A stretch of DNA of 19,819 nucleotides from a virus (IMGVR_UViG_2675903413_000006:1-19819), one strand, 5' to 3'; positions 1,873 through 19,601 are shown, counted from the first letter of the stretch. The notes: generated by a model from the sequence alone, not told the origin. Numbers and translations are program-made.

Positions 1873-2022
1873 GGGCCGATTCACTTTTATTGAATTTTTG
1901 TTACCGATAAAAGCTTGACATTTTAGTATCGAATGACCACCGTTATCATATTTGATTTCGGTGGTTAGCTTTCGACGTTGAAGAACTACTAGAGACTTTT
2001 ATCTAATATTAATGTTAAATTT

Positions 2023-3153: not shown

Positions 3154-3376
3154 TCAAAATCCGTTGCAAAAGTAATGAGTCATTTTTCTTAATTACTGGT
3201 GTTACCAGCTCTCCAACTAACTCGGCGTCCTCACGCACTCGCCATAACCGACCTTGTTTCATTGCCGGTGGACAAAACAAATTCTGCTTAGCATAACGAC
3301 GCAACGTGGAAACGCTTGGAGGATTACTTCTGTATTTTTCAGAAGCCCATTCTTCAAGAGTTAACATTTGAAGCAT
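3131..3376 (-). CDS. xis: Excisionase (Xis-like)
   Basis: 81-aa ORF just upstream of int, overlapping its start by 23 nt as lambda xis/int do; MLTLEEWA...RRYAKQNLFCPPAMKQGRLWRV resembles the lambda Xis winged-helix region. Confidence 0.8.
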   Translation of the reverse strand: MLQMLTLEEWASEKYRSNPPSVSTLRRYAKQNLFCPPAMKQGRLWRVREDAELVGELVTPVIKKNDSLLLQRILSDGSQTA

Positions 3377-3450
3377 ATGCGATCACCTTATTACTTCAAT
3401 AACTGTTCAGTCTCTGCATATCGACCCTGCAAGGTCGGTTAGTTTCTCCA

Positions 3451-3586
3451 CAAAACAGAGAAGAACACCTGCGATGACTGCCGCCCCGGATGGATTGGGT
3501 TATGAGCCCGTCGTCCGGTGATGCTCTTCTCTGTTTTGTAAAAAGGACGGTACCAGCCGGAAGCAAGGGTACAAACTGGTACCGTC
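3451..3586. promoter_or_regulatory. GC-rich structured non-coding segment with two long inverted repeats (14 bp arms at 3451-3464/3525-3538; 11 bp arms GACGGTACCAG at 3546-3556/3576-3586); candidate operator cluster or structured RNA
   Basis: Perfect inverted repeats read directly from the sequence. ORFs across this region overlap in several frames with no RBS, so it is treated as non-coding. The GGTACC/GGTACAA motifs resemble the immunity-region operator half-site. Confidence 0.4.
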
Positions 3587-3803
3587 AAGACTACACACAG
3601 CATAAAGTTGTGGTGCCGGGTGCCTCCCGGTGCCTGGCGAAGGTTGCACACCAGACGGGTGGGTATCCACAGAAGGTCGACTGTCAGCCTCAACCTTAAC
3701 CCGCGTGCGCTGAGCCGCATTCACCACAACGCTAAGGATTCTCTCTGGTTGAAAATACTTAGCAGTTATGTGCCTGCTTTTAGCCACATCAGGCGAGGTG
3801 GAC

Positions 3804-3856
3804 CTGGTTATTCCCCAACAACAAGGATTCGGTTAATCTGGTTATCCCCAACAACG
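3804..3856 (+). repeat. Imperfect direct repeat CTGGTTAT(T)CCCCAACAAC, two copies 34 bp apart, just upstream of the 3871 gene
   Basis: Copies at 3804-3823 and 3838-3856, ending 15 nt before the ATG at 3871. Confidence 0.6.
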
Positions 3857-3870
3857 CAAAAGGAAAAGAA

Positions 3871-4305
3871 ATGTCCGGTAATATCTATACGCTGTACAAA
3901 TCCCACTGTGAAAATGTTGGAAAGTATCGGGGCATTGAAATCAGTGGGGTAGTGTCATCAGTCGAAATAAGCAAAGTTGAATCAAGGGCAACATTACTTA
4001 CTCTTCTGGACCTTGTCTTACATGAGCACCGGAAGAAATTCGGCACTCCCTATAATCAGTTGAATGGGAAAAAAGCTCTGGTTCACCTTATTCTGATGAA
4101 GCATCACTGGATGCCAAAACAGATTAATGAGATGAAATTTGATGAACTTCTTCTTTCAATTCAGGATGAACTCACGCTTGATAAAATAAGCGTAACCGCC
4201 CAGAAATTTTTAGATTATCGAGACTGGAGATCACAAATTCATCACTTTGATGATTTTGACGAAAATGAATGGGATCCTAATTTGTCTGCACAATATCTAA
4301 AGTAA
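3871..4305 (+). CDS. Hypothetical phage early-region protein (144 aa)
   Basis: ORF with a purine-rich stretch (aaaaggaaaagaa) before the ATG; no recognisable motif. Confidence 0.5.
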   Translation: MSGNIYTLYKSHCENVGKYRGIEISGVVSSVEISKVESRATLLTLLDLVLHEHRKKFGTPYNQLNGKKALVHLILMKHHWMPKQINEMKFDELLLSIQDELTLDKISVTAQKFLDYRDWRSQIHHFDDFDENEWDPNLSAQYLK

Positions 4306-4483
4306 CATCCTGTGATAAAACCGTGATTTCCTGATCCAGTTTTTTTAAGGAGTCTATTGTTTCCTGTCGATAAGACAGCACTTCACGAAGCTGGTTTATA
4401 GCTGCCAGCTTCTTTGCCATCCACTCGTAAATTTCCTCATTTGTGTATCCGGGCGCGACGATTTTTGGTTCTGTTTTGTGCAT
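4277..4483 (-). CDS. Hypothetical small protein (68 aa), first gene of the leftward early transcript
   Basis: Strong RBS (GGAGG 7 nt upstream of the ATG on the minus strand); sits downstream of the putative OL-like GGTACAT sites. Its 3' end is convergent with the 3871 gene. Confidence 0.5.
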   Translation of the reverse strand: MHKTEPKIVAPGYTNEEIYEWMAKKLAAINQLREVLSYRQETIDSLKKLDQEITVLSQDVTLDIVQTN

Positions 4484-4542
4484 TTCACACCTCCTCAAGT
4501 TATCAGTTACTTGTTGATGGGGACCAGATTGTTAAAGAGCTA

Positions 4543-4566
4543 AGCGTCCTGTAGGGCGCTTTTTTG
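4543..4566 (+). terminator. Rho-independent terminator-like hairpin (7 bp stem with one G-U pair, 4-nt loop) followed by TTTTTG
   Basis: AGCGTCC-tgta-GGGCGCT then a T-run on the plus strand; there is no T-run on the minus-strand side. Confidence 0.5.
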
Positions 4567-4717
4567 TTGCTAACGAATCATCCTGGACTTCATATGCCCC
4601 AGGCGGCTACTTCGTGGGCGTCCTGTCTGTTTGTTGTTTCTCTTTGGTACATTATGTATCTCAAGGGTACATTGTCAAGTATAAAAAAACCTGCCGAAGC
4701 AGGTTCATAAACATTGA

Positions 4718-5392
4718 TTAGGCTTTGATTTTGTATCTTCTTGGTTTTCCTGAGAAAATCACAGTTCCAATTATAGAGCAATTACCGTTGATCTTAATGT
4801 AAGGCTCAGGCCAGTTTGGGTTTAACGCTTTGAGATAACGCTGTGTCCCATCTTCTATCAACCTTTTGAAGGTGGTTTCACCTGTATCGTGCATCAATGC
4901 AATAACGTCGTCACCGTGGCAGGCAGGTACTTCAGGATCGACAAAAATCATGTCTCCCGGGCGGTACTCATCAATCATTGAATCACCTATCACCCGCAAG
5001 ATATAAGTCATTTCCCCACAGGGTACAGGGCAGGGATACGTTTCTGCTGTGCTCAAATCAACCTCAGAATATCCAACTTCTTTCCATGCTCCGGCCTGTA
5101 CCCATGATATGACAGGGACTAATGTGATTTGTTTATTAGTGATTGAAACATCAGGTTTTTTTGTGATGTTCGTTGTCTGGTGTTCTTGATCGAGCCATCC
5201 GACAGGCAGGTCGAAACATTTTTCGATGTGTCGTGCCATGCTGTCACCGATATTTTTAGTAGCACCATCTCCCATAAACCTGCTGGTCTGGGTTGGCTCG
5301 CGATCAATCATAGTGGCAAAGGAAGAATTCCCGCCAACACCATCTCTCAGTTTTCTGGCGTTAGACCGCCGGATGTCATGGATTGTTTTCAT
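4718..5392 (-). CDS. cI: Phage repressor, CI-like, with a C-terminal S24 (LexA-like) autopeptidase domain
   Basis: C-terminal VIGDSM (Ser nucleophile) and TFKRL (Lys) are the S24 Ser/Lys dyad; divergent from a cro-like gene with an operator palindrome between them. Confidence 0.85.
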   Translation of the reverse strand: MKTIHDIRRSNARKLRDGVGGNSSFATMIDREPTQTSRFMGDGATKNIGDSMARHIEKCFDLPVGWLDQEHQTTNITKKPDVSITNKQITLVPVISWVQAGAWKEVGYSEVDLSTAETYPCPVPCGEMTYILRVIGDSMIDEYRPGDMIFVDPEVPACHGDDVIALMHDTGETTFKRLIEDGTQRYLKALNPNWPEPYIKINGNCSIIGTVIFSGKPRRYKIKA

Positions 5393-5407
5393 AACGAAAT
5401 TAAAACC

Positions 5408-5428
5408 CTTGTACCGTTAAGGTACAAG
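5408..5428. promoter_or_regulatory. Operator: perfect palindrome CTTGTACC-gttaa-GGTACAAG in the cI/cro divergent promoter region; a further GGTACA half-site lies at 5471-5476
   Basis: 21-bp perfect dyad 16 nt upstream of the cI start codon and about 55 nt upstream of cro. Confidence 0.7.
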
Positions 5429-5482
5429 TATCTTGAAGGTTCATTTCAATCATGTAATATGTATACCGGAGGTACATATTGT

Positions 5483-5683
5483 ATGAAAGCGTATTGGGAC
5501 TCTTTAACCAAAGAACAGCAGGGCGAGTTGGCCGGAAAAGTTGGCTCAACACCTGGCTACTTACGGCTGGTTTTCAATGGCTATAAAAAAGCCAGTTTTG
5601 TGCTGGCTAAAAAACTTGAGCAATGCACGTCAGGTGCAATTACGAAATCTGACTTAAGACCGGATATCTATCCGAAAGATTAG
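5483..5683 (+). CDS. cro: Cro-like HTH regulator
   Basis: 66-aa product; GGAGG RBS 11 nt upstream; divergent from cI. The 5' part of the longer 5180-5683 ORF overlaps cI antisense and is rejected. Confidence 0.7.
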   Translation: MKAYWDSLTKEQQGELAGKVGSTPGYLRLVFNGYKKASFVLAKKLEQCTSGAITKSDLRPDIYPKD

Positions 5684-5714
5684 CAGAACACTTTCAATTT
5701 TTAACCACAGAACG

Positions 5715-6284
5715 ATGAGGCTAATCGTGGGTAAGCATCACTGGAAAATAGAAAAACAGCCTGAGTGGTACGTGAAAGCTGTCAGAAAAACTATCGCGGC
5801 GTTGCCGGGTGGTTACGCTGAAGCGGCTGACTGGCTCGATGTAACAGAAAACGCTTTATTCAACCGCCTTCGTGCAGATGGCGATCAGATTTTCCCGCTG
5901 GGATGGGCAATGGTTTTACAGCGTGCTGGTGGCACTCACTTCATTGCTGATGCTGTGGCGCAGTCTGCAAATGGCGTCTTTGTGTCTCTTCCTGACGTCG
6001 AGGATGTGGACAACGCCGATATTAACCAGCGTCTGCTGGAAGTCATTGAACAGATCGGCAGTTATTCAAAACAGATTCGTTCAGCAATCGAAGACGGTGT
6101 AGTGGAACCGCATGAGAAGACAGCAATTAACGACGAGCTGTACCTATCAATTTCGAAGCTGCAGGAGCATGCAGCACTTGTCTACAAAATTTTTTGCATT
6201 TCAGAAAGTAATGACGCCCGCGAGTGTGCAGCTCCGGGCGTCGTGGCGTCGATTGCTTCTGGTTGTGGAGAAACTAACGCATGA
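5715..6284 (+). CDS. Phage regulatory protein CII-like (phage 186 CII / CP76 family-like)
   Basis: Sits in the cII position downstream of cro; residue pattern ([27 protein letters not shown]...HFIADAVAQ) parallels 186 CII as recalled from memory. The start may be the GTG at 5727. Confidence 0.5.
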
Positions 6285-6466
6285 ACAGTTTAACAACACA
6301 CTACCGTCGCTCGCAACTGATTGCGCTTCCTGTACCGGGTGGAAAAGCGAAGGTGGAGTATTGCTATGCAGTAAATGTACCAGGTGAACGGTGTTTACAG
6401 AAAAGCAGCAAGCGGGCTGCATCAGGTGAAGAGTGGTATCTGTCAGGGAATTACGTGGGGGCTTAA
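6281..6466 (+). CDS. Hypothetical small protein (61 aa), translationally coupled on both sides
   Basis: ATGA overlap with the upstream stop and TAATG overlap with the downstream start; no recognisable motif. Confidence 0.3.
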
Positions 6467-7119
6467 TGAGTAATAAATATTGCCAAGCGCTGGTGGAACT
6501 GCGGAACAAACCAGCCCATGAACTGAAGGAAGTGGGCGATCAGTGGCGCACGCCGGATAACATTTTCTGGGGAATTAACACCCTGTTTGGTCCGTTTGTT
6601 CTGGATCTGTTTACCGATGGTGATAACGCCAAATGTGCCGCGTATTACACGGCGGAAGACAACGCGCTGGCGCATGACTGGTCAGAACGTCTTGCGGAGC
6701 TTAAAGGTGCTGCCTTTGGTAATCCCCCATATAGCCGCGCCAGTCAGCATGAGGGGCAATACATCACCGGCATGCGTTACATCATGAAGCATGCCAGTGC
6801 CATGCGTGATAAAGGCGGGCGCTATGTTTTCCTGATCAAAGCTGCCACCAGCGAAGTGTGGTGGCCGGAAGATGCAGATCATATTGCTTTTATTCGCGGG
6901 CGTATTGGTTTTGAACTGCCTGCCTGGTTTATCCCGAAGGATGAGAAGCAGGTGCCGACAGACGCTTTCTTCGCTGGTGCTATTGCTGTTTTCGACAAGA
7001 CCTGGAAGGGACCGGCAATCAGCTACATCGGGCGCGATGAACTTGAGGCATGTGGTGAGGCCTTTCTGGCGCAGGTTCGCCAGCAGGCAGAAAAACTGGT
7101 CAGGGAGATGGCGGCATGA
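6466..7119 (+). CDS. Phage N6-adenine DNA methyltransferase (Dam-like)
   Basis: Catalytic NPPY motif (AFGNPPYSR) and typical phage Dam-family context in the nin-like region. Confidence 0.8.
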   Translation: MSNKYCQALVELRNKPAHELKEVGDQWRTPDNIFWGINTLFGPFVLDLFTDGDNAKCAAYYTAEDNALAHDWSERLAELKGAAFGNPPYSRASQHEGQYITGMRYIMKHASAMRDKGGRYVFLIKAATSEVWWPEDADHIAFIRGRIGFELPAWFIPKDEKQVPTDAFFAGAIAVFDKTWKGPAISYIGRDELEACGEAFLAQVRQQAEKLVREMAA

Positions 7120-7442
7120 CGACGTTAACTCAATGCCAGCAGCAGGTGCTGGATATGCTGATTTCTTATCAGAAAGAACGTGGCTTCCCGCCAACCAATC
7201 AGGAGGTGGCAACCATGCTGGGATACCGTTCAGTGAATGCAGCGGTGGAGCATCTTCGCGCACTGGAGAAAAAAGGCGTCATCACGATAAAGCGTGGCGT
7301 GGCCCGGGGCATCACGCTTCATACCGCGGTGAAGGACGACGACAGCGAGGCGGTCGGGATTATCCGCTCACTGCTTGCCGGTGAGGAAAACGCAAGGCTG
7401 CGTGCAACCCACTGGTTACATGAGAGGGGCCTGAAAGTATGA
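7116..7442 (+). CDS. LexA N-terminal DNA-binding-domain protein lacking the S24 peptidase domain
   Basis: 108 aa; MTTLTQCQQQVLDMLISYQKERGFPPTNQEVATMLGYRSVNAAVEHLRALEKKGVITIKRGVARGITL aligns by eye with the E. coli LexA N-terminal domain. No Ser/Lys peptidase region follows. Confidence 0.75.
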   Translation: MTTLTQCQQQVLDMLISYQKERGFPPTNQEVATMLGYRSVNAAVEHLRALEKKGVITIKRGVARGITLHTAVKDDDSEAVGIIRSLLAGEENARLRATHWLHERGLKV

Positions 7443-7834
7443 AGCTGATCCTGCCTTTTCCGCCCAGCGTGAACACGTACTGGCGACACCCCAACAAAGG
7501 GGCGTTTGCTGGTAAGAGCCTGATAAGCGCGGCGGGGCGAAAATTCCAGAGCGCGGCGTGCGCAGCAATAGTTGAGCAGTTACGTCGTCTGCCGAAACCA
7601 ACGTCGGCACCTGCTTCAGTGGAGATCGTGTTGTTTCCTCCGGATAACAGGATCCGCGATCTGGACAACTATAACAAGGCGCTGTTTGACGCCCTGACCC
7701 ACGCGGGGGTGTGGGAAGACGACAGTCAGGTGAAAAGAATGCTGGTGGAGTGGGGACCGGTTATCCCGGAGGGGAAGGTCGAGATCACTATCAGTAAGTA
7801 CGAAAAAGCGAGTTGCAAATTAGCAACTCGGTAA
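7439..7834 (+). CDS. rusA: Holliday junction resolvase RusA
   Basis: 131 aa; LPFPPSVNTYWRH...RDLDNYNKALFDALTHAGVWEDDSQV...VEITI matches the RusA signature. Confidence 0.85.
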   Translation: MKLILPFPPSVNTYWRHPNKGAFAGKSLISAAGRKFQSAACAAIVEQLRRLPKPTSAPASVEIVLFPPDNRIRDLDNYNKALFDALTHAGVWEDDSQVKRMLVEWGPVIPEGKVEITISKYEKASCKLATR

Positions 7835-7879
7835 CGGAATTGAGCAACACCCTAAATTTGGGTATTACCTCGTTAAAGA

Positions 7880-7899
7880 TACTGTATTTATGAACAGTG
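7880..7899. promoter_or_regulatory. LexA (SOS) box TACTGTATTTATGAACAGTG upstream of the KilA-N gene
   Basis: CTGT-N8-ACAG with an AT-rich spacer, matching the enterobacterial LexA consensus; about 100 bp upstream of the ATG at 7997. Confidence 0.7.
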
Positions 7900-7996
7900 T
7901 ATCCTTGATAACTATTAAAAATCGCAGTAAGTTCATCCTGCATCAACGAAAAGGGAGTGCAGTCCCGCTCGTGGATAAAAATTTGTGGAGAAACCA

Positions 7997-8812
7997 ATGA
8001 ATCAGTTGCTTGTAATTGATGGCGTTTCTGTGCGCCAGTACTTCGAATCTAACTACTGTCTTAACGACCTTCAGAAAGCAGCTCTTCTTGCCGCTGGTGA
8101 GAATCGCTCCTCCCGTTCGCTGGAAGTTCACGAGTTTATGCGTCGTCCTGAAACGAAGGCTCTTGTGGAATTATTGGAAGAAGAAACTACGGGAGATTCC
8201 CGTAGTATTCCTGTCATCACCATTCAGGGGCGCAATGGTGGGACGTATGTCTGTAAAGAGCTGGTCTATGCATATGCAATGTGGATCAGCCCGGCATTCA
8301 GCTTAAAAGTGATACGTACTTTTGATGCGCTTCATAATTCATCACCAGAAGAAACCACATCCGACAAAATTAAATCCGGGGTCATTCTGCTTGAATCAGC
8401 AGCAAAGACTCTAAATCTGTCAAACTCCTCGAAACTTGGTGCATACCAGAAATTATCAAAGGTAGCTGGTCTTCCTGAACTTATGCCGATCTATGCCATT
8501 GATGCACCTGCTGATGCGCCAGATGGTTCAAGCCGCCCTACGCTGTCGCTGAGTGCACTGCTGAAACAGTATGGTATCCGCCTTACGGCTAATCAGGCAT
8601 ATCACCAGATGGTGAAGCTGGGGATCGTCGAGCAGCGCGAACGATACAGCCGTACCTCGATTAACAACATCAAAAAATTCTGGTCGCTGACAGCGAAAGG
8701 CTGCATGTTCGGCAAGAACATCACCAGTCCTGCAAATCCGCGCGAGACGCAGCCGCACTTCTTCGAATCCCGATTCCCTGAGCTGTTAAAGCTGCTCAAT
8801 ACCGTTCATTGA
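7997..8812 (+). CDS. KilA-N domain protein, putative SOS-controlled antirepressor
   Basis: N-terminal KilA-N-like segment (GTYVCKELVYAYAMWISPAFSLKVIR); GGAG RBS; LexA box in its promoter region. Confidence 0.7.
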   Translation: MNQLLVIDGVSVRQYFESNYCLNDLQKAALLAAGENRSSRSLEVHEFMRRPETKALVELLEEETTGDSRSIPVITIQGRNGGTYVCKELVYAYAMWISPAFSLKVIRTFDALHNSSPEETTSDKIKSGVILLESAAKTLNLSNSSKLGAYQKLSKVAGLPELMPIYAIDAPADAPDGSSRPTLSLSALLKQYGIRLTANQAYHQMVKLGIVEQRERYSRTSINNIKKFWSLTAKGCMFGKNITSPANPRETQPHFFESRFPELLKLLNTVH

Positions 8813-8813
8813 G

Positions 8814-9809
8814 GTGACCGTGAGAGCACTACTGACCCCTGAAATTGCCCCGCGTATGGGGATCGTATTGTTCAGACCAGGTTCAGAGCTGATGCCCCTG
8901 TTTATGCAGGGGCGTGTCCTGCTGGAGCCTGAGCCGGAACGTTATTCATCTTTCGCCAGTGGTGCCGTTCCGGCGGCATCACAACCGCTGGCGGATGATC
9001 CTGCCGTTCGGGCCGTGTTCCGCAATGAGGCAGTAATCCGTCGTGCTGGTGGAGTGGAATGTCTTGAAAGCTGGTTACTTCGTGAAAAAGGCTGCCAGTG
9101 GCCCCATTCTGACTGGCACAGCGAGAACATGACCACAATGCGACACGCGCCGGGCGCAATCCGTCTGTGCTGGCACTGCGATAACCAGCTGCGCGATCAG
9201 TTCACGGAACGGCTGGAATCAATGGCAACGGATAACTGTGCCCGCTGGGTGTTATCTGTTGTGCGCCGTGATCTCGGTTTTGATGATAGTCACGTTGTAA
9301 CAATGCCGGAACTGTGCTGGTGGCTGGTTCGTAATGACCTGGCTGATGCCTTACCGGAAAGTGCAGCCCGTAAGGCACTGAGATTACCTAAGCCTGTTGT
9401 GCCGTCTGTCACCCGGGAGAGTGACCTTGTTCCTTCGGTTCCTGCCACCAGCATTATCCAGGATAAAGCGAAAAAGGTGCTGGCGCTGAAAGTGGATCCA
9501 GAGTCGCCGGAGTCTTTTATGTTACGCCCAAAACGTCGCCGCTGGGTTAATGAAAAGTACACGCGCTGGGTTAAGACGCAGCCGTGTGCATGTTGTGGAA
9601 AGCCTGCTGATGATCCCCACCACCTGATAGGCCACGGTCAGGGTGGAATGGGTACAAAAGCGCATGATCTCTTTGTGTTGCCTTTGTGCAGAAAGCATCA
9701 CGACGAGCTGCATGCGGATACCGTGGCATTTGAAGAGAAGTATGGCTCCCAGCTGGAGCTGATATTTCGTTTTATCGATCGTGCGCTGGCAATTGGCGTG
9801 CTGGCCTGA
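8814..9809 (+). CDS. DUF968-family phage protein (YdfU-like) with a Cys/His-rich C-terminus
   Basis: GTG start; C-terminal CACCGKPADDPHHL...CRKHHDELH; position immediately upstream of Q as in Qin-type prophages. Confidence 0.65.
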   Translation: MTVRALLTPEIAPRMGIVLFRPGSELMPLFMQGRVLLEPEPERYSSFASGAVPAASQPLADDPAVRAVFRNEAVIRRAGGVECLESWLLREKGCQWPHSDWHSENMTTMRHAPGAIRLCWHCDNQLRDQFTERLESMATDNCARWVLSVVRRDLGFDDSHVVTMPELCWWLVRNDLADALPESAARKALRLPKPVVPSVTRESDLVPSVPATSIIQDKAKKVLALKVDPESPESFMLRPKRRRWVNEKYTRWVKTQPCACCGKPADDPHHLIGHGQGGMGTKAHDLFVLPLCRKHHDELHADTVAFEEKYGSQLELIFRFIDRALAIGVLA

Positions 9810-9826
9810 TTTTGTGGAGAAGGTTG

Positions 9827-10177
9827 ATGCGTGATATGTATGAAGTATTGGACCGCTGGGGAGCATGGGCTGCAGCAGATAACAGTGGTGTGGACTGGCA
9901 GCCTGTTGCTGCAGGGTTTAAAGGTTTACTACCTCATGGAAAGAAAACACGCCAACAATGCGATGATGATGAAGGAATCATGATTGACAGCTGTGTTGCG
10001 CGATTGCGGAAATATAAGCCAGAAGAATATGAACTGATCATTGCTCACTTTGTTATCGGTATTTCACTCCGTTCAATAGCAAAGAAACGGAAATGCTCTG
10101 ACGGGTCAATCAGAAAACAACTTCAAGCAGCAATAGGAGTGATTGAAGGTATTTTGTTGATTATTAAGCCCCTGTAG
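9827..10177 (+). CDS. Late-gene antitermination protein Q (QuuD-like small Q family)
   Basis: MRDMYEVLDRWGAWAA...AAGFKGL...CDDD...CSDGSIRKQLQAAIGVIEGIL matches the QuuD/YbcQ-like pattern; RBS GGAGAAGG. Confidence 0.8.
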   Translation: MRDMYEVLDRWGAWAAADNSGVDWQPVAAGFKGLLPHGKKTRQQCDDDEGIMIDSCVARLRKYKPEEYELIIAHFVIGISLRSIAKKRKCSDGSIRKQLQAAIGVIEGILLIIKPL

Positions 10178-10180
10178 GGC

Positions 10181-10765
10181 TTAATAATTCATATGAATTC
10201 TGTTTCCGAGATAATATAATCCAAAGAAAGTTGATACTAAGAGTTGCCAAACGAGGAAAGTAAATACAACAGTATAAACCATTAAAACAATACTGTTTTG
10301 ATAGACATTGATTAATGGTGAAAATATAGCATTAAGTATTATTATAACAATGCTTAATGCTGTTAAAAAAGAGAATAGCATGCAAAGAAATAATCGTCTG
10401 GTCAGAACCTCCTCTGAATTTACTACTTTTCCATTTTCTTTTGTTACTTTTATTTCAATAGAGGCATTTCTTTCATTGCTAATCAATGGTAAATCAATCT
10501 CAGCTCTATTGAAAGTTGCTATGGCGGCCAGAGCGGCAATATAAAACCCTGGTAGGTTAGAGATAAATGAAACGATTGATTTAATGAAACCATTGTCATC
10601 AAATAAATCTTTGACAGGGATTTTTAATAGAGTGAAAAGTACTGCTGTGATAGAAGTAAGTAGAATTGGTGCTACCCAATCATATGCAGCTTTGCCGCTA
10701 ATACCTTTAATAAAAAGATATCCAAACGGCTTGCCTAGATGAGAGAAAACTGAAAGTATTGGCAT
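10181..10765 (-). CDS. Hypothetical integral membrane protein (194 aa, about four predicted TM helices); second gene of the AT-rich cargo operon
   Basis: Four hydrophobic segments with a ~40-aa hydrophilic loop between the second and third; GAGG RBS 6 nt upstream of the ATG; 7-nt intergenic gap to the upstream gene; AT-rich. Confidence 0.6.
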   Translation of the reverse strand: MPILSVFSHLGKPFGYLFIKGISGKAAYDWVAPILLTSITAVLFTLLKIPVKDLFDDNGFIKSIVSFISNLPGFYIAALAAIATFNRAEIDLPLISNERNASIEIKVTKENGKVVNSEEVLTRRLFLCMLFSFLTALSIVIIILNAIFSPLINVYQNSIVLMVYTVVFTFLVWQLLVSTFFGLYYLGNRIHMNY

Positions 10766-10772
10766 AATAACC

Positions 10773-11795
10773 TCACATCAAATCTATCATTTTCACAACA
10801 AACTCTAGTTCAATTTTAACATATGAATCCTTCAGGCGCGAATTAAAGTTATCGATAATGCTTTTCTTAATAAATGTTTTTTCTAAATTATTAAGATTGA
10901 TGTTTGAGGTTTTGAAATCAACCTGCCTTGGTTTATTTGTTTCAGGATCTTGGAATTTAACCTTTAATTTATCATAACCACCATTCATTTTTTTATTGAA
11001 ATGAGATGCTACATTTTTAATCCATCCAATAACATTGTCACCATGATTTGGAAGTAATTTTAATGTACTTTCAGTCGGAATGTAAGGTGAATTAACATCA
11101 GGAGCATTAATTGTTCCGAATTGATCCTTGACTAATATGACATCTGATAATCCTTTTTGGCTTATTTTATTAAAAAGCTCCTTGTCTAACATTCCTGTAA
11201 ATTCAAATATTGGTTTGTATCGTATTTTTACTTCTTTTTTTGATGTTGCAGAAATAACGTTAGTTGGATGTTTTGCGGTAAATAAGTCTTCATTGTCTTT
11301 CGCCACTTCAAAGAGAATTTTGTCTAAAAAACTATTTAACCGGGCCGTAGATACACCTGGGGTAGATGTACAAATCATATCATAGGTTCTTTTATTTCCA
11401 TTTAATGATATGACAACATAGGTAGAAACTTCATAGCCTTCACCTTGTTCATATTTTGGTTGGATTTCAACGCGTTCATTAGTATTTATATTTTTTACAA
11501 CGGTAGTACTTCCATTTTTATCAACACTATTAATAAGAAGGACAATATGCGTGGGTGAGTTATCTGGAAGTAAAGGATAAAGTTGTACATCTTGGAGAGT
11601 AACTACAATATTCCCAGAATCATATGAATGAACGAGTCCCTTTTGTTTAACAATCAATGGGGCAAGCATGTACATTTCCGGAACAGGACATATACACTGG
11701 GCTTTTACCTCTTGTGTTGCCTTGGTTCTAAACTTTGTGTCAATGGTCAGACTATGATGAGTAACGAGTCTTTCGCTAGCATTTAATTTTGCCAT
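10773..11795 (-). CDS. Hypothetical soluble protein (340 aa); first gene of the AT-rich cargo operon
   Basis: Long AT-rich ORF antisense to the phage late genes; no catalytic motif recognised (no CD-NTase GS...DxD, no YADD, no Walker A, no TIR/SIR2 signature seen). Confidence 0.6.
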   Translation of the reverse strand: MAKLNASERLVTHHSLTIDTKFRTKATQEVKAQCICPVPEMYMLAPLIVKQKGLVHSYDSGNIVVTLQDVQLYPLLPDNSPTHIVLLINSVDKNGSTTVVKNINTNERVEIQPKYEQGEGYEVSTYVVISLNGNKRTYDMICTSTPGVSTARLNSFLDKILFEVAKDNEDLFTAKHPTNVISATSKKEVKIRYKPIFEFTGMLDKELFNKISQKGLSDVILVKDQFGTINAPDVNSPYIPTESTLKLLPNHGDNVIGWIKNVASHFNKKMNGGYDKLKVKFQDPETNKPRQVDFKTSNINLNNLEKTFIKKSIIDNFNSRLKDSYVKIELEFVVKMIDLM

Positions 11796-11906
11796 GAAAT
11801 CATCCGATTATGATTTTTCGATTTATTTGTTAATCTTACAAAAACGCTAACGCGTACGCAAAAATTATTGTATCGTGTTAAGAGTGGTTACTTCGCCACA
11901 CAGCTT

Positions 11907-11935
11907 AAACCCGCCGTCGAGCGGGTTTTGTCGTT
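11907..11935 (+). terminator. tR'-like intrinsic terminator (hairpin AAACCCGC...GCGGGTTT then a T-rich tract) upstream of the lysis cassette
   Basis: GC-rich stem followed by TTTTGTCGTTT, about 150 bp upstream of the holin gene; fits the lambdoid pR'-tR' arrangement. Confidence 0.6.
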
Positions 11936-12080
11936 TCTGGGGCTGGGGATTCGTTGGTCCTGGTCTATTCCGCAGTTATCCATTGGTTCGGCTTCTTTGA
12001 CGTTTCCGCTTCTAATTTGCTGTACATGATGTTCCCTCAATTTGCACCTGCTGTATCAGCGAGGTGAGAGATAACTACAA

Positions 12081-12407
12081 ATGCCTCATAACCCAAATAC
12101 CTGGCTGGAGTTGGTCCAGAGCTGGTGGCGTGGAGACACACCGCTGGGCGCAGTGATTATGTCGATTGTTATGGCTGGTTTACGTATTGCCTATTTTGGC
12201 GGTGGTGGCGGCTGGAAGCGAAAAACACTCGAAATTCTACTCTGTGGCGCTCTGACGCTGACTTTTGCATCCGCTCTTGAGTATGTCGGATGGCCTAAAT
12301 CGCTTTCTGTTGCCATTGGTGGTGGGGTGGGGCTGATCGGTGTCGATGCTATTCGTGGGGCTGCAATGAGAGTAATCGGTAATAAGTTTGGTGGCTCTAA
12401 GGAGTAA
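12081..12407 (+). CDS. Holin (lambda S-like)
   Basis: 108 aa with hydrophobic helices and a charged C-terminus, immediately upstream of the endolysin. Confidence 0.8.
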   Translation: MPHNPNTWLELVQSWWRGDTPLGAVIMSIVMAGLRIAYFGGGGGWKRKTLEILLCGALTLTFASALEYVGWPKSLSVAIGGGVGLIGVDAIRGAAMRVIGNKFGGSKE

Positions 12408-12410
12408 TTT

Positions 12411-12887
12411 ATGCAGGTACTAAATTCCCAGCGTAAAGCTTTCCTCGATATGGTGGCATGGTCAGAAGGAACGGATAACGGGCGACAACCGACACGTAAC
12501 CACGGTTATGATATTATTGTTGGTGGTGAACTATTCACTGATTACTCCGATCACCCTCGCAAACTTGTCACGCTAAACCCCAAACTCAAATCAACAGCTG
12601 CAGGCCGTTATCAACTTCTTTCACGCTGGTGGGATGCTTACCGCAAGCAGCTTGGGCTGAAAGACTTCTCTCCAAAAAGCCAGGATGCTGTGGCATTGCA
12701 GCAGATTAAAGAGCGTGGCGCTTTACCGATGATTGATCGCGGCGATATTCGTCAGGCTATCGATCGTTGCAGCAATATCTGGGCTTCACTGCCGGGCGCT
12801 GGTTACGGTCAATATGAACATAAAATCGGTGACCTGATTGCCCGATTCAAAGAGGCTGGCGGGGTGGTAAATGAAGTTGAGCTATAA
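12411..12887 (+). CDS. Endolysin, lambda R-type lytic transglycosylase
   Basis: Near-identical by recall to lambda R across the protein (QRKAFLDMVAWSEGTDNGRQPTRNHGYDIIVGGELFTDYSDHPRKLVTLNPKLKST...). Confidence 0.9.
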   Translation: MQVLNSQRKAFLDMVAWSEGTDNGRQPTRNHGYDIIVGGELFTDYSDHPRKLVTLNPKLKSTAAGRYQLLSRWWDAYRKQLGLKDFSPKSQDAVALQQIKERGALPMIDRGDIRQAIDRCSNIWASLPGAGYGQYEHKIGDLIARFKEAGGVVNEVEL

Positions 12888-13305
12888 GCTGGTTATCGCA
12901 GCATTCTTCTCTACTGTCATCGGTTCTTTCATCTGGTCTGCTAACCACTACTACAGCAAATATCAGCACGAAAAGAAACGTGCTGATGAGGCTGTACAAA
13001 ATGCTGAATCCGCAACCGCTATTACCAATAATGTCCTGCAATCACTGCAAATCGTCAATACAGTTCTGGAGGCTAACCAGCATGCAAAACAGCAGATCGC
13101 ACTGGAGTCACAGAGAACCCAGGCTGATATCAAAGTGGCTGTTGCGGATGATGATTGTGCTTTACGCCTTGTGCCTGCTGCCGCTGCTGACCGGTTGCGG
13201 AAATACGCGGACAGTTTACGTAACAGTACCTCCAATTCCGCTTCCAGCTACTCTGACTTTGGAAACGCCAGTACCGCACATACCCGATACTCTGACCTAT
13301 GGTGA
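12871..13305 (+). CDS. Rz-like i-spanin
   Basis: N-terminal TM segment followed by a coiled, charged region; start overlaps the R stop. Confidence 0.7.
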   Translation: MKLSYKLVIAAFFSTVIGSFIWSANHYYSKYQHEKKRADEAVQNAESATAITNNVLQSLQIVNTVLEANQHAKQQIALESQRTQADIKVAVADDDCALRLVPAAAADRLRKYADSLRNSTSNSASSYSDFGNASTAHTRYSDLW

Positions 13306-13396
13306 CAGTCTGGAGTTGAATGTGAGTCTGTTGTCAGCGTTGGAACAGTGTAATCTTGATAAAGCGACAATAAAAAATATCGACGCTAACAAATAA
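13148..13396 (+). CDS. Rz1-like o-spanin lipoprotein, embedded in the +1 frame of Rz
   Basis: MMIVLYALCLLPLLTGC signal with lipobox LTGC, then a Pro-rich segment; lies within and extends beyond Rz. Confidence 0.65.
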   Translation: MMIVLYALCLLPLLTGCGNTRTVYVTVPPIPLPATLTLETPVPHIPDTLTYGDSLELNVSLLSALEQCNLDKATIKNIDANK

Positions 13397-13461
13397 AAGG
13401 ACCTGTAATTTCATAGAGATGATTCCATGTTAATATTGCTTCTTTAACTGGAGGCATATTG

Positions 13462-13947
13462 ATGGATTGGAATATGTGGTCTGCTATTGGGGCTTGTGGT
13501 TCGGCTATCGCGTCTTTATGGGCGTTGTGTTATGCACGCAAGGCGTTAAACACATGGAATAGACAAGAGCAATTTAAAGTAAAGTTAGAGTTTAAACGAG
13601 CTTTACTTGAGCTGGAGGATGCCTTTGAGGCAATGCCCGATAATTGGAATTCCACACAATACAGAATAGCTAGAACAAGAGTTGAACAGCAGTATAATGC
13701 TGTTGTTCACCGAGTTGATGATGCAGCACAGCTATATTTTAAGAAAGAAAACCTTAAATCAGCATACCAGAATGCAGTGAGAGCATGGGTTTTATGTGAA
13801 GGGGGGATTAAAGATAAAAGTATACATGCTGAATGGAAACAACTCAGGACTGAATATAGTCAATATATTATGACTGGTGGAAATAAAAAGTGCTACTTAT
13901 CAAAAATAGAAAAAATATATTCTAGAATTGTCGTGTTCATAGATTGA
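13462..13947 (+). CDS. Hypothetical AT-rich moron protein (161 aa) with an N-terminal hydrophobic helix
   Basis: GGAGG RBS 7 nt upstream; AT-rich; followed by a perfect palindrome ATGAGAGAG-acaagta-CTCTCTCAT (13955-13979). Confidence 0.5.
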   Translation: MDWNMWSAIGACGSAIASLWALCYARKALNTWNRQEQFKVKLEFKRALLELEDAFEAMPDNWNSTQYRIARTRVEQQYNAVVHRVDDAAQLYFKKENLKSAYQNAVRAWVLCEGGIKDKSIHAEWKQLRTEYSQYIMTGGNKKCYLSKIEKIYSRIVVFID

Positions 13948-13993
13948 TTTTTATATGAGAGAGACAAGTACTCTCTCATTATGGATATTTTAC

Positions 13994-14344
13994 ATGCCAC
14001 CACGAACCCCAAAAGCCTGCCGCGTTCGCGGCTGCCGCAATACCACTACTGATCCGTCAGGCTATTGCGAAAACCACAAAAGCGAGGGCTGGAAGCAATA
14101 CAAGCCAGGACAATCCCGTCATCAGCGCGGTTATGGTTCGAAATGGGATGCTATCCGTGAACGTGTGCTGAAGCGTGACAAAGGCCTGTGTCAGTTATGT
14201 CTGCGTGCTGGTGTGGTGCGTGAGGCGAAAACCGTTGACCACATCATCCCTAAAGCGCATGGCGGCACAGATGCCGACAGTAATCTGCAGAGCCTGTGCT
14301 GGCCGTGTCATAAGGCGAAGACGGCCCGTGAACGGCTGAAGTGA
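13994..14344 (+). CDS. HNH endonuclease (terminase-associated)
   Basis: CxxC...HK...CxxCH arrangement with DHIIPKAHGG...NLQSLCWPCHKAKT; located immediately upstream of terS. Confidence 0.8.
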   Translation: MPPRTPKACRVRGCRNTTTDPSGYCENHKSEGWKQYKPGQSRHQRGYGSKWDAIRERVLKRDKGLCQLCLRAGVVREAKTVDHIIPKAHGGTDADSNLQSLCWPCHKAKTARERLK

Positions 14345-14469
14345 GAACCAGTTCCCACTGCCAGAGGGGAGGGGCGGGTCAAATCCCTGTGACCTGACGT
14401 CTTCCGGACTGCCCGCCCCATCGTTTTTTTATACCCGCGAAAAATGAAATTTAACCAGGAGTGCCGCAT

Positions 14470-14964
14470 ATGGCTGGAACGGCGGGGCGTTCCGGGCGTC
14501 GCCCCAAGCCAACGGCGCGCAAGGCGCTGGCCGGAAACCCCGGCAAGCGAGCCCTGAATAAAGATGAACCTGTTTTTACGCCCATCAAAGGTGTTGAGCC
14601 ACCGGAGTGGTTCGCAGAAGAAAATCTCCCTCTCGCCACGATCATGTGGCAACTGACAACCAAAGAACTCTGCGGTCAGGGCCTGTTGTGCGTGACTGAC
14701 CTCGCGGTGCTTGAGCGGTGGTGCGTGGCCTATGAGTTCTGGCGACGTGCCGTGAAAAATATTGCCATACAGGGCAACACCATCACCGGTGCAATGGGCG
14801 GCAGGGTCAAAAATCCGGAGCTGACCGCCAAAAAAGAACAGGAGTCCGAGATGAGCAGCACGGGGGCAATGCTCGGACTCGACCCCAGCAGCCGCCAGCG
14901 TCTGATTGGCCTGGCGGGGAAGAAGAAAGCCACTAACCCGTTTCTGAAAATCATCGAATCATGA
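14470..14964 (+). CDS. Terminase small subunit, P27 family
   Basis: [14 protein letters not shown]... N-terminus and size typical of P27-family TerS; AGGAG RBS; ATGA coupling to terL. Confidence 0.75.
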
Positions 14965-15767
14965 GCCGGAAATCTTACCCCAACGTAAATGCTGCAAATC
15001 AGTATGCCCGGGATGTCGTGCGCGGAAAGATTGTTGCCTGCCAGTTTGTGATTCAGGCCTGCCAGCGCCATCTTGATGACCTGATGGCGGAAAAAAGTAA
15101 GTCGTTTCGTTACCGCTTCGACAAGGACCTGGCTGAACGGGCCGCGAAATTTATTCAGCTGTTGCCGCACACCAAGGGGGAGTGGGCATTCAAACGGATG
15201 CCCATCACGCTGGAGCCGTGGCAGCTATTTGTGATCTGCTGTGCGTTTGGCTGGGTCAATAAAGGCACCCGGTTGCGCCGCTTCCGGGAGGTGTACACCG
15301 AAATCCCCCGTAAGAACGGCAAATCAGCAATCTCTGCCGGTGTTGCCCTGTATTGTTTTGCCTGTGATAACGAGTTTGGCGCGGAAGTGTATTCCGGTGC
15401 CACGACAGAGAAACAGGCGTGGGAAGTCTTTCGCCCGGCGCGACTGATGTGTAAACGCACACCCATGCTGACGGAAGCGTTCGGGATTGAGGTTAACGCC
15501 TCAAACATGAACCGTCCGGAGGATGGCGCGCGGTTTGAACCGCTGATCGGCAACCCAGGTGATGGTTCATCACCCCACTGTGCCGTGGTGGATGAATATC
15601 ACGAGCACGCCACCGATGCGCTTTACACCACGATGCTTACCGGGATGGGGGCGCGACGTCAGCCACTGATGTGGGCCATCACCACCGCCGGGTACAACAT
15701 TGAGGGACCGTGCTACGACAAGCGGCGGGAAGTTCTCGAGATGCTCAACGGTTCGGTATGTTTCTGA
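14961..15767 (+). pseudogene. Terminase large subunit, N-terminal ATPase fragment (about 265 aa)
   Basis: Walker A-like PRKNGKS and Walker B-like AVVDEYHE are present; the ORF stops after ~268 codons where full-length TerL is about 550 aa, and the following DNA encodes a tail protein. Confidence 0.8.
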
Positions 15768-15768
15768 T

Positions 15769-16557
15769 GCGATGAAAGTGGTGGATTCTGCCGTATCGGA
15801 TGCCGCCAGGCTGTTGCAGGGGGATATCTCGGTACTTCTGCCGCCGCCATCGTCAGGCAAAAATTTCGTTGAGCAGGTGCAGAAAATGTGGCGTACCGGG
15901 AAACGCCTTTATGGTAACGCCAGCGACCTGGTCACCATGATCAAAACGCTTTCCGGTGTCAGCCTCGGCAGCGATCTGCAACCGCGCGGCGTCTGGAAAA
16001 CGGACAGTAAAACCACCGCCACGGCTACGCAGCAGCGTAACGTAGTTGCCAGCACCCTTCGTACGACCGCAATCAGCGAAGCGGCGTATGCCGTCACCCG
16101 ATTGCCTGCGCCAACAACTTCCGCGGTGATGCAGAATGCCGCAGTGGGGCAGGCAACAACACCTGCGCAGAGCACTGGCTGGCCTTCCGTCACGCATCCG
16201 GCACTGAACAATGCACCGGCGGTGAAAAACACGGTTGACCTGCCGACGTGGGAAGAACTGACTGACATTCGCGACACACTGAATACGGCAATTGATAAGG
16301 AGTTGTCCCGTACAACCAGTGATGCGCTGTTTCTGGCGCTGCGCCGGGTGAAAGCAGATCTGAATGCGGATATCAACACGCGCCTTGAACAGTCTGCACG
16401 GATCATTCAGCGCACACCGGATGAGGTTTTACCCGCGCTGGTGCTGGCGGCGACCTGGTTTGATAACGCGGCGCGTGACGCGGACATTATCCGGCGTAAT
16501 GCCATTACGCATCCCGGCTTTGTGCCGGTGATCCCTCTGAAGGTGCCAGTGCAATGA
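15769..16557 (+). pseudogene. C-terminal fragment of a Mu gpN-like DNA circulation/tail protein, fused at a deletion junction to truncated terL
   Basis: ORF directly upstream of, and overlapping by ATGA with, the gpP-like gene, which is the gpN position in Mu-like tail modules. The identification is by position more than by sequence. Confidence 0.5.
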
Positions 16558-17633
16558 ACGATAACGTCACGCTACGGGTAAATGGCCGGGAGTGGAATGG
16601 CTGGACATCGGTGCGCATCGGTGCCGGTGTTGAACGACTGGCGCGGGATTTCAGTGTGGAGATCACCCGCCAGTGGCCGGGAAATGAGGGTATTACCACG
16701 CTTCAGCCGCGCATTAAAAACGGTTCAAAAGTGGAAGTGCTGATTGGTGATGAGCTGGTGATCACCGGCTGGGTGGAGGCGACGCCCGTTCGTTACGATG
16801 CCCGTTCGGTCAGCACCGGTATTGCCGGACGTAGTCTGACCGCAGACCTGATTGACTGTGCAGCCGAACCGACACAGTTTAACGGACGATCGCTGGTACA
16901 GATTGCGCAGGCGCTTGCTGCGCCTTTCGGCATTGAGGTGGTGAACAGCGGTGCGCCGTCGGGTGTTATTCCTGATGTCCAGCCTGATCACGGTGAAACG
17001 GTGATTGAGGTGATCAACAAAATACTCGGTCAGCAGCAGGCGCTGGCTTACGACGACCCGCACGGCAGGCTGGTGATTGGCGGTATTGGCTCAACGCGGG
17101 CACATACCGCGCTGGTACTCGGGGAAAACATCCTTTCCTGCGATACGGAGAAGAGTATCCGGGAGCGGTTTTCTGTTTACCAGGTGGCGGGGCAGCGTGC
17201 CGGAAACGACGATGATTTCGGTGAGGCCACCACCACCGCGCTGCGGGCCCGCACAGAGGACGCATTTATTGCCCGTTACCGTCCGATGTATATCAGGCAG
17301 ACAGGGCAGGCTACGGGGGCAGGCTGTATTGCCCGTGCTGACTTTGAAGCCCGACAACGGGCGGCGCGAACGGACGAAACCACCTATGTGGTGCAGGGCT
17401 GGCGACAGGGTAACGGTACGCTGTGGCAGCCCAACCAGCGGGTGATTGTCTTCGATCCGGTCTGTGGGTTTGACAATACCGAACTGCTTGTCTCGGAGGT
17501 CACGTTTACTCAGGACCAGAACGGCACTCTGACGGAAATCCGTGTCGGCCCGCCTGATGCTTATCTGCCTGAACCCGAAGACCCCGGCGCGCGGAAAAAG
17601 AAAAAAGCCAGAGTACAGGAGGACCCGTTCTGA
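16554..17633 (+). CDS. Baseplate hub protein, Mu gpP / P2 gpD-like (phage late control D family)
   Basis: 359 aa; size, position and sequence character fit the gpP/gpD family. Confidence 0.75.
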   Translation: MNDNVTLRVNGREWNGWTSVRIGAGVERLARDFSVEITRQWPGNEGITTLQPRIKNGSKVEVLIGDELVITGWVEATPVRYDARSVSTGIAGRSLTADLIDCAAEPTQFNGRSLVQIAQALAAPFGIEVVNSGAPSGVIPDVQPDHGETVIEVINKILGQQQALAYDDPHGRLVIGGIGSTRAHTALVLGENILSCDTEKSIRERFSVYQVAGQRAGNDDDFGEATTTALRARTEDAFIARYRPMYIRQTGQATGAGCIARADFEARQRAARTDETTYVVQGWRQGNGTLWQPNQRVIVFDPVCGFDNTELLVSEVTFTQDQNGTLTEIRVGPPDAYLPEPEDPGARKKKKARVQEDPF

Positions 17634-18181
17634 TGAGGACGATTGAAGCCATGCAGCGACAACTTCTCGGTCTGATTGGGCGGGCAGTGGTGAAAAGCAT
17701 CAGTGCCGCCACGAAATGTCAGACCGTGGATGTGTCCCTGATTGCCGGTGAACCCAAAGCAGGGGTTGAACATCTTGAACCCTACGGTTTTACCGCAAGG
17801 GCAAACAGCGGTGCGGAAGCGGTGGTGTTGTTTCCGGATGGCGACCGTTCTCATGCGGTGGTTGTTACGGTGTCGGACCGGCGCTACCGCCTGAAAGGGC
17901 TGCAGACGGGTGAGGTGGCTGTCTATGACGATCAGGGGCAGTCCGTGACGCTGACCCGGGAGGGGATCGTGGTGGACGGTGCAGGTAAAACGATCACGTT
18001 TCGCAATGCGCCCAGAGCACGTTTTGAAATGGACCTGGAAGTGACCGGACAGGTGAAAGACCTGTGCGACTCCGGCGGCACCACCATGTCAGCGATGCGG
18101 CTTGCCTATAACGGGCATCGTCACAGAGAGAACGGTCAGGGCAGTAACACCGACAAACCTGATAAAGCGATGGAGGCATGA
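17633..18181 (+). CDS. Baseplate spike / assembly protein, Mu gp45-like (gpV-like)
   Basis: 182 aa; overlapping-stop coupling with the flanking baseplate genes; fits the gp45/V family by position and sequence character. Confidence 0.75.
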   Translation: MRTIEAMQRQLLGLIGRAVVKSISAATKCQTVDVSLIAGEPKAGVEHLEPYGFTARANSGAEAVVLFPDGDRSHAVVVTVSDRRYRLKGLQTGEVAVYDDQGQSVTLTREGIVVDGAGKTITFRNAPRARFEMDLEVTGQVKDLCDSGGTTMSAMRLAYNGHRHRENGQGSNTDKPDKAMEA

Positions 18182-18606
18182 TGGAACTGTGGCTGACGGT
18201 GAACGGTAAACGCACCTGCGCCAGCGCACCGCTGGATCCGCTGACCCGCGCCGTGGTGATTTCCCTGTTTACCTGGCGGCGGGCGGAGCCTGATGACAAC
18301 GCCGACGTCCCGATGGGATGGTGGGGGGATACCTGGCCTGCGGTACAGAATGACCGTTACGGCTCCCGGCTGTGGCTGCTTCAGCGCAGCAAACTGACCA
18401 ATCAGCTGGTGCAGACGGTAAGGGGATATATCCGCGAATGCCTGCAATGGATGACTGATGACGGCGTGGTGTCCCGTATTGATCTGGATATCCGCCGCAC
18501 CGGGATTAATGAACTGGGTAACAGTATCACTCTCTGGCGTCGTGACGGACCGGTAATGATTTCTTTTGATGATCTGTGGAGTGCGATAACGCATGGCGGA
18601 CAGTGA
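18178..18606 (+). CDS. Mu gp46-like baseplate protein (Phage_GP46 family)
   Basis: 142 aa with the MGWWGD...GSRLWLL motif typical of the GP46 family. Confidence 0.75.
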   Translation: MMELWLTVNGKRTCASAPLDPLTRAVVISLFTWRRAEPDDNADVPMGWWGDTWPAVQNDRYGSRLWLLQRSKLTNQLVQTVRGYIRECLQWMTDDGVVSRIDLDIRRTGINELGNSITLWRRDGPVMISFDDLWSAITHGGQ

Positions 18607-18811
18607 ATTTCAGCGCCCGACGCTGGCAGAAAATATCAGTATGCTCCGTAACGATTTATTCGCCAGGCTGGACGTCAGCGACACGCTCCGGCGCATGGAT
18701 GAAGACGTGCGGGCAAAGGTGTATGCGGCGGCGCTGCATACGGTTTACGGTTACATCGATTACGTCAAATTGGCGGGCATAATGCCTGGCGTGACAGCAA
18801 CGGACAGTTGA
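18593..18811 (+). pseudogene. Baseplate J-like protein (Mu gp47 family), N-terminal ~70-aa fragment truncated at a deletion junction
   Basis: ...VYAAALHTVYGYIDYVKLAGIMPGVTAT matches the N-terminal region of baseplate J proteins; the ORF ends after 72 codons and the downstream DNA encodes an autotransporter beta-domain. Confidence 0.7.
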
Positions 18812-19601
18812 GAACGACCTCGCATCGCTACGTCTCGCAGTTAGGGGGCGATCTGTTAACCGGTGGTTTTACCGATAGTGACAGTTGGCGTTTGGGAGTG
18901 ATGGCTGGTTATGCCCGCGACTACAACTTAACTCATTCCAGCGTGTCGGATTATCGTTCGAAAGGGAGTGTCAGAGGCTATAGCGCAGGGCTGTATGCCA
19001 CCTGGTTTGCCGATGACATCAGTAAAAAAGGCGCATACATTGACTCCTGGGCGCAATATAGCTGGTTTAAAAACTCGGTGAAAGGGGATGAATTAGCCTA
19101 TGAATCCTATAGCGCGAAAGGTGCAACCGTCTCGCTGGAAGCGGGTTACGGTTTTGCCCTGAATAAATCCTTTGGTCTGGAAGCGGCGAAATATACGTGG
19201 ATCTTCCAGCCACAGGCACAGGCTATCTGGATGGGCGTCGATCATAATGCGCACACGGAAGCCAATGGCTCACGTATTGAGAATGACGCAAATAACAACA
19301 TCCAGACCCGACTCGGCTTCCGCACCTTTATTCGTACTCAGGAGAAAAACAGCGGTCCGCACGGTGACGACTTTGAACCTTTTGTTGAAATGAACTGGAT
19401 CCATAACAGTAAAGATTTTGCTGTCTCAATGAACGGTGTGAAAGTCGAACAAGATGGGGCGAGTAATTTGGGGGAAATTAAACTTGGCGTAAATGGCAAC
19501 CTGAATCCAGCGGCCAGCGTCTGGGGAATGTGGGCGTGCAGCTGGGTGATAATGGCTACAATGACACCGCAGTGATGGTGGGCCTGAAATATAAGTTCTG
19601 A
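18808..19601 (+). pseudogene. Autotransporter outer-membrane beta-barrel domain remnant, 5'-truncated, with a 1-nt frameshift near 19525-19530
   Basis: Beta-domain-like sequence (GYSAGLYATWF...SLEAGYGF...). Reading frame 0 from ~19503 gives the canonical C-terminus ...NVGVQLGDNGYNDTAVMVGLKYKF*, while the upstream frame ends early; the passenger domain is absent. Confidence 0.75.

Follow-up and report, generated by a model that had tools for sequence, protein, structure and literature searches.

The window analysed here (the whole stretch of viral DNA, 19,819 nucleotides long) joins a truncated gene for the terminase large subunit (TerL) to the 3' part of a gene for a Mu gpN-like tail protein. 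We consider this junction, J1, to be the scar of a single deletion in a decaying e14/SfV-like prophage, an outcome of ordinary prophage decay, with a probability of about 93%. The features on which the argument draws are as follows, in window coordinates.

6384-6387, no strand: junction D0, a GTGA 4-bp microhomology at a 1,595-bp deletion, from the alignment to E. coli 82.0311
14470-14964, plus strand: intact TerS gene, P27/Terminase_4 family (Pfam PF05119, E 3.8e-20); a 164-aa TerS lies at the matching position of 82.0311
14961-15767, plus strand: truncated TerL gene (TerL'), 268 aa, made of 266 genuine codons and then Cys-Phe-stop from gpN DNA in the wrong frame
15306-15326, plus strand: Walker A motif PRKNGKS, aa 116-122, read from the translation
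15582-15602, plus strand: Walker B motif AVVDEYH, aa 208-214, read from the translation
15755-15758, no strand: junction J1, a GGTA 4-bp microhomology, from a three-way alignment of the window, parental TerL and parental gpN
15759-16557, plus strand: gpN remnant (gpN'), the 3' 60% of a gene for a Mu-N-like DNA circularization/tail protein, from codon 177 to the stop
16554-17633, plus strand: intact gene for a Mu gpP-like baseplate hub (Pfam GpP-like_1st, Gp44-like_2nd, GpP_4th)
17633-18181, plus strand: intact gene for a Mu gp45-like baseplate assembly protein V (Pfam PF06890)
18178-18606, plus strand: intact gene for a GP46 family protein (Pfam PF07409)
18593-18762, plus strand: first 56 codons only of gp47 (baseplate J), gp47'; the alignment to 82.0311 gp47 stops at 18762
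18761-18762, no strand: junction J2, a TA 2-bp microhomology, from a three-way alignment

The parent prophage and junction J1

Window positions 1-18762 are entirely covered by a colinear alignment to a complete prophage of E. coli 82.0311, which lies between icd and an icd' remnant (NZ_CP122454.1, about 2.416-2.457 Mb). Identity is 100% over 1-6387, and three SNPs are found over 6384-15758; the gapless blocks 7360-15758 (8,399 bp) and 15759-18762 (~3 kb) carry one mismatch each. With a total divergence of about 2-4 SNPs in 18.7 kb, the 82.0311 prophage is effectively the undeleted parent form of the window element, from which it stands only a few SNPs apart. The window is also colinear with this intact e14/SfV-like member in having intE/xisE next to icd, which adjoins in 82.0311 and would lie just beyond the edge of the window. 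The phage type can be assigned as e14/SfV-like, temperate and icd-integrated, combining a lambdoid control region with an HK97-like head and a contractile tail of the Mu kind. In 82.0311 the late region runs from TerS, TerL (577 aa), ymfR, portal, HK97-type protease and major capsid through connector and head-closure proteins, tail terminator, sheath, tube and tail assembly protein to tape measure, an OB-fold gene, gpN (442 aa), gpP, gp45 and gp46, and ends with gp47, ymfQ, tail fibres and pin.

Two cargo regions accompany this backbone. Next to intE, at 1-1872, the window carries a gene for a 623-aa DUF2357 protein, for which PADLOC returned no match and which may conceivably act as a defence or restriction module; in 82.0311 a gene for an 848-aa hypothetical protein precedes the DUF2357 gene, and the pair occupies the position of ymfD, ymfE and lit in K-12 e14. 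Between the Q antiterminator and holin genes, on the minus strand at 10181-11795, lies a gene pair encoding 194 aa and 340 aa, with PADLOC matches to the candidate defence entries PDC-M53B (E 2e-54) and PDC-M53A (E 2e-32), which suggests a moron-type cargo locus; this pair had no meaningful Pfam match.

A preliminary description of this DNA had proposed a deletion junction between TerL and gpN, and had suggested alignment to intact relatives and a search for microhomology at about 15745-15775. The alignment bears the proposal out, since the 82.0311 prophage has a full-length TerL, a full-length gpN and the genes between them, and relative to it the window shows a clean deletion of 11,617 bp. 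In the three-way alignment, the window follows TerL up to ...AACGGTTCGGTA and gpN from GGTATGTTTCTGATG... onward. The GGTA lies within the interval that had been suggested and is common to both parental sites, whose leftward extension is identical at 10 of 13 bases; the crossover falls somewhere within these four bases and joins TerL codon 266/267 to gpN codon 176/177. Every base at J1 can be assigned to TerL or gpN, with no added base and no mobile element left behind. By chance, about 1.6% of random joins would show a microhomology of at least 4 bp. When positions 14400-17700 were compared by megablast with 5,426 complete E. coli genomes, the query was split at about 15743-15758: about 1,450 genomes matched one side or the other, and both sides were found close together in a single record, CT02.

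The three junctions of the element share the form of a short-homology deletion, each being a clean join that keeps one copy of its repeat (GGTA at J1, GTGA at D0 and TA at J2). We propose that J1 arose by a single illegitimate deletion of 11,617 bp in the late operon of an icd-integrated e14/SfV-like phage, which joined TerL codon 266 to gpN codon 177 at the GGTA repeat. The 2-4-bp homology at the junctions suggests RecA-independent recombination, whether by replication slippage, strand annealing or end joining. A deletion mediated by an insertion sequence or a recombinase was rejected for J1, as no extra DNA, inverted repeats or element is present there. Longer direct repeats were likewise rejected as its driver: a repeat scan of the parental deleted interval gave only chance-level families, and the best TerL/gpN repeat pair (18 of 23 bases, at 9069 and 20021 of the parental locus, L002) is out of register with the junctions of both the window and CT02.

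The preliminary description had spoken of TerL being fused to gpN, and this holds for the DNA and not for the protein. The gpN frame is +1 relative to that of TerL, as follows from the deletion length modulo 3 and the phases of the two genes, and no chimeric protein is therefore encoded. An in-frame fusion protein can be ruled out, and TerL' terminates two codons past the junction, at the TGA at 15765-15767.

Gene fragments at J1 and the state of the element

Homology to TerL stops at 15758 after 266 codons, close to the end at about 265 aa and around 15750 that had been read by eye, and both Walker motifs noticed there are in place. Over aa 1-266, TerL' is 100% identical to the intact TerL of 82.0311, in which TerL_ATPase occupies residues 86-256 and TerL_nuclease residues 268-558. 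The TerL' ORF matches TerL_ATPase (PF03354) at residues 86-256 with E 1.7e-26, covering profile positions 1-174 of 178, and its 268 aa gave no match to TerL_nuclease (PF20441) or to any other Pfam family. The break sits in the linker between the two domains, leaving the ATPase domain whole and removing the nuclease domain entirely. We regard the TerL of the window as a gene fragment rather than a functional TerL because the C-terminal nuclease domain is absent, an assignment made from the domain content. Several public "partial" TerL proteins (P0002, P0011) come from contigs that end exactly at residue 267, one codon past the left breakpoint of the window, and belong to a slightly different allele (…REVIEMLNGSVP).

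On the other side of the junction, the gpN' ORF (15772-16554) encodes 261 aa, 100% identical to aa 182-442 of the intact gpN. Its start codon, ATG 15772, corresponds to Met182 of the intact protein and lies 4 nt past the TerL' stop codon. The DNA_circ_N domain (PF07157), found at residues 7-93 of intact gpN, is absent from gpN', and the 261-aa product gave no Pfam family match. Gene callers used for public assemblies predict this ORF, and inspection of the sequence before ATG 15772 revealed no recognisable ribosome-binding site or obvious Shine-Dalgarno sequence; translation of gpN', if it occurs, would depend on reinitiation. The order of genes given in the preliminary description, the end of a tail protein followed by gpP, gp45 and gp46, was confirmed: the fragment is the C-terminal part of a Mu gpN family member, entered at codon 177, and the three genes downstream have the Pfam matches listed above. 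The reference to SfV-like relatives proved apt as well, the baseplate part being 98% identical to that of SfV, SfII, SfIV and SfI.

Between the TerL and gpN pieces, J1 removed 15 genes. The losses comprise the nuclease domain of TerL, ymfR, portal, prohead protease, major capsid and head-tail connectors, as well as tail terminator, sheath, tube, tail assembly protein, tape measure, the OB-fold gene and the N-terminal domain of gpN. Genes for portal, capsid, sheath, tube and tape measure had been reported missing, and none is present in the colinear alignment that covers 1-18762 in full. The element lacks complete head and tail morphogenesis modules, and everything past codon 56 of gp47 is also gone.

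Beyond what had been described, two additional deletions contribute to disabling the element. D0, in the early-right operon, took out a DUF4222 gene along with an HTH replication-like gene and the greater part of a PerC-like (PerC/yfdN-like) gene. At J2, codon 57 of gp47 runs into ycgH, a chromosomal autotransporter pseudogene of 2,648 nt, at its nucleotide 1808, so that the 3' third of ycgH follows, with a Pfam Autotransporter beta-domain at 18808-19575. The phage lost the remaining baseplate genes, tail fibres, pin and attR by J2, and the chromosome lost, in K-12 order, iraM, ycgX, bluR, bluF, ycgZ, ymgA, ariR, ymgC, pdeG and ymgF. The flank past ycgH (ymgD, minEDC, ycgJ and others) is chromosomal in a 319-kb contig that carries the same junction.

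Taken as a whole, the prophage would be unable to cut or package DNA or to build heads and tails, and excision would also be blocked because J2 removed attR. From its gene content, the element is probably a defective, locked-in cryptic prophage that forms no particles. The repressor (S24 family), Q, holin, endolysin, spanins, HNH gene and TerS remain as intact ORFs. Three short-homology deletions set against about 2-4 SNPs in 18.7 kb indicate very recent, deletion-driven decay, and this recency is probably the only reason why the genes for the repressor, Q and TerS, along with the lysis cassette and three baseplate genes, have survived intact.

Occurrence of the junction and other possible origins

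The 5,426 complete E. coli genomes contain no copy of the exact J1 junction. By exact-protein look-up of the 268-aa TerL', carriers were located on at least 17 contigs (17-20) from NCBI, Logan run assemblies and ENA metagenome samples; the NCBI carrier, GCA_907172445.1, is the 319-kb contig mentioned above, and SRR29457365 and ERR9955169 are further carriers. An identical junction 60-mer is present in eight of the nine loci that were fetched (L003-L010), from different projects and assemblers; the ninth (L011) stops 26 bp past J1 and is identical throughout its extent. Carrier contigs of sufficient reach have identical J1 and J2 junctions and differ from the window by 0-2 SNPs. The exception is L009, an ENA metagenome scaffold equivalent to window 14325-18815, in which J1 and J2 are present together with 33 clustered SNPs. 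These lie in TerS (14604-14926) and from gpN' to gp45 (16116-18160), with none in roughly the 830 bp on one side and the 360 bp on the other side of J1; either a second SfV-like prophage donated them by gene conversion or the scaffold is a consensus of mixed strains. J1 is an allele passed on clonally in a lineage without a representative among the complete genomes.

Endpoints of three further deletions, each independent, lie no more than about 60 bp from the gpN breakpoint of the window. The four events are listed here with their gpN endpoints in coordinates of the parental locus, L002.

Window: TerL codon 266 joined to gpN; endpoint 20013-20017; 11,617 bp; GGTA
CT02: TerL codon 497 joined to gpN; endpoint 19994/5; 10,903 bp; AA (junction at L001 17046-17051)
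HSP425: internal gpN deletion whose left end is at the AA of CT02, 19994/5; 343 bp (L015 6280-6281)
ERR1623421 contig: sheath codon 241 joined to gpN; endpoint 19957; 4,434 bp; TG (L019 3928-3929)

This clustering may be a local deletion hotspot or an effect of ascertainment. As an account of J1, it seems rather unlikely to us that gpN codons of about 157-181 form a recurrent deletion endpoint in SfV/e14-like prophages, either as fragile DNA or through selection, in which case deletions stopping just upstream of Met182 would keep the C-terminal part of gpN, gpP, gp45 and gp46 translatable by termination-reinitiation. Four independent events with endpoints within 19957-20017 are not what a simple model of random deletion predicts, and in each of the three events that retain the right-hand side no more than 7 nt separate the stop of the truncated upstream ORF from the Met182 ATG. 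Of the 15 listed gpN fragments in the protein cluster, eight also start at residues 170-182, although many gpN protein fragments are contig-end partials. Against this, our searches were centred on the J1 site with queries that spanned it, the exact-protein look-up finds any junction at which gene callers choose Met182, and there are gpN truncations with different endpoints (19594, 20159 and 20337). Selection is further disfavoured by the window itself, which lost gp47 onward and has no functional baseplate on which selection could act.

Two structural explanations for a preferred endpoint were examined and rejected. A hairpin that might stimulate breakage, the stem CCAGCA-N3-TGC(T)TGG between the breakpoints, does not exceed shuffled sequence in stability (z 0.05 and -1.3). 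A mosaic (allelic) boundary in gpN or TerL is not apparent either, as the left half of gpN occurs in 1,100 records and the right half in 1,098, and the TerL genes of CT02 and 82.0311 differ only by 20 scattered SNPs. A true hotspot would mean that the prophages decay along a channelled and not a random course here; the clustering is the sole element of possible novelty in these data.

A more complicated history, in which J1 was reached in several steps or two co-resident SfV-like prophages recombined unequally, is in our estimation highly improbable. The opportunity for it does exist: many E. coli hold these genes in two or three copies, with up to 3-7 places per genome, 82.0311 itself has two places for gpN, and the clustered SNPs of L009 suggest gene conversion or a chimeric consensus. 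Only the end product of the J1 event is visible, which leaves room for intermediates. However, both flanks are near-identical to one intact prophage, with one SNP on each side, and no intermediate occurs among the 5,426 complete genomes; the product, moreover, would be the same either way.

That J1 is an assembly artefact, a chimeric contig made of two prophage fragments, is scarcely conceivable: repeated prophage sequence does often break or mis-join short-read assemblies, and many public "partial" TerL and gpN proteins are contig-end fragments, but the same junction 60-mer occurs in eight independently assembled loci, including the 319-kb NCBI contig, and J1, J2 and D0 are consistently present together. 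The preliminary description had asked whether an intact relative might show the short TerL and the downstream protein to be natural full-length genes, and we give almost no credence to the idea that they belong as such to some other element, for example a satellite or a tailocin-like locus, for although gene callers predict both as complete ORFs and the TerL' break falls exactly in the ATPase-nuclease linker, up to the breakpoint the nucleotides match the full-length genes at 99.99% identity, with complete divergence after it, the frames are discordant, gpN' lacks a recognisable ribosome-binding site, the sheath and tube genes that a tailocin needs are absent, and 1,090 of the 1,098 E. coli gpN records are uninterrupted across the site, in addition to the existence of an intact relative. 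A single short-homology deletion in an e14/SfV-like prophage is the reading that we retain.

Significance and comparison with known systems

That defective prophages are shaped by short-homology deletions is textbook material, and there is nothing new in the mechanism or the outcome of J1. Its wider importance is small: it is a clean and well-documented case of a prophage being disabled, and three short-homology deletions with almost no point mutations illustrate the deletional bias of bacterial genomes. In practical terms, pseudogene fragment is the appropriate annotation for both TerL' and gpN', and counts of inducible phages should leave the element out. Stress and biofilm phenotypes of the host could be affected by the disappearance of attR together with chromosomal neighbours (iraM, bluRF, ycgZ-ymgAB, pdeG, ymgF). 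Grounded and defective prophages are the subject of general reviews (PMC6379469, PMC7744054).

The Shigella serotype-converting phages SfV, SfII, SfIV and SfI resemble the window in the baseplate module from gpN' to gp47', and their alignments to the window begin exactly at J1. The Sf phages and the 82.0311 prophage carry full TerL, portal, head, sheath, tube, tape measure, gpN, gp47-gp48 and tail-fibre genes, which the window element does not.

The remnant in CT02 (NZ_CP081698.1) is an independent deletion that likewise joins TerL to gpN out of frame, and the pair is annotated in NCBI as "terminase large subunit, missing C-terminus" and "DNA circularization protein, missing N-terminus". Its left endpoint is at TerL codon 497, compared with 266 in the window, its right endpoint is about 20 bp upstream of that of the window, and the 10,903-bp deletion has a 2-bp AA microhomology. 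CT02 also differs in its backbone and integration context, with CPS-53-like early genes, and has kept gp47 through the tail fibres.

The closest parallel in kind is e14 of E. coli K-12, the original analysis of which is reportedly that of Mehta, Casjens and Krishnaswamy in 2004. By direct alignment to the K-12 record, e14 is 91-99% identical to the 82.0311 prophage; it is of the same phage type and occupies the same icd site, with intE/xisE, the ymfK repressor, ymfT and ymfL like those of the window type. It is likewise defective through two clean internal deletions that fuse unrelated gene fragments, one of them involving the terminase large subunit. The first joins a replication gene to TerL codon 200, giving ymfN, the "chimeric replication protein/phage terminase" (oweE::aaaE), and the second joins portal codon 136 to gp47 codon 91, giving beeE/jayE. 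K-12 e14 thus keeps TerL 200-577, ymfR, portal 1-136 and gp47 from codon 91 to its end, whereas the window keeps TerL 1-266, gpN from codon 177 to its end, gpP, gp45, gp46 and gp47 1-56. In addition, e14 has retained attR (icdC), the tail-fibre genes and pin, which the window element lost through J2. The breakpoints differ between the two, and the K-12 and window remnants represent complementary subsets of one ancestral genome.
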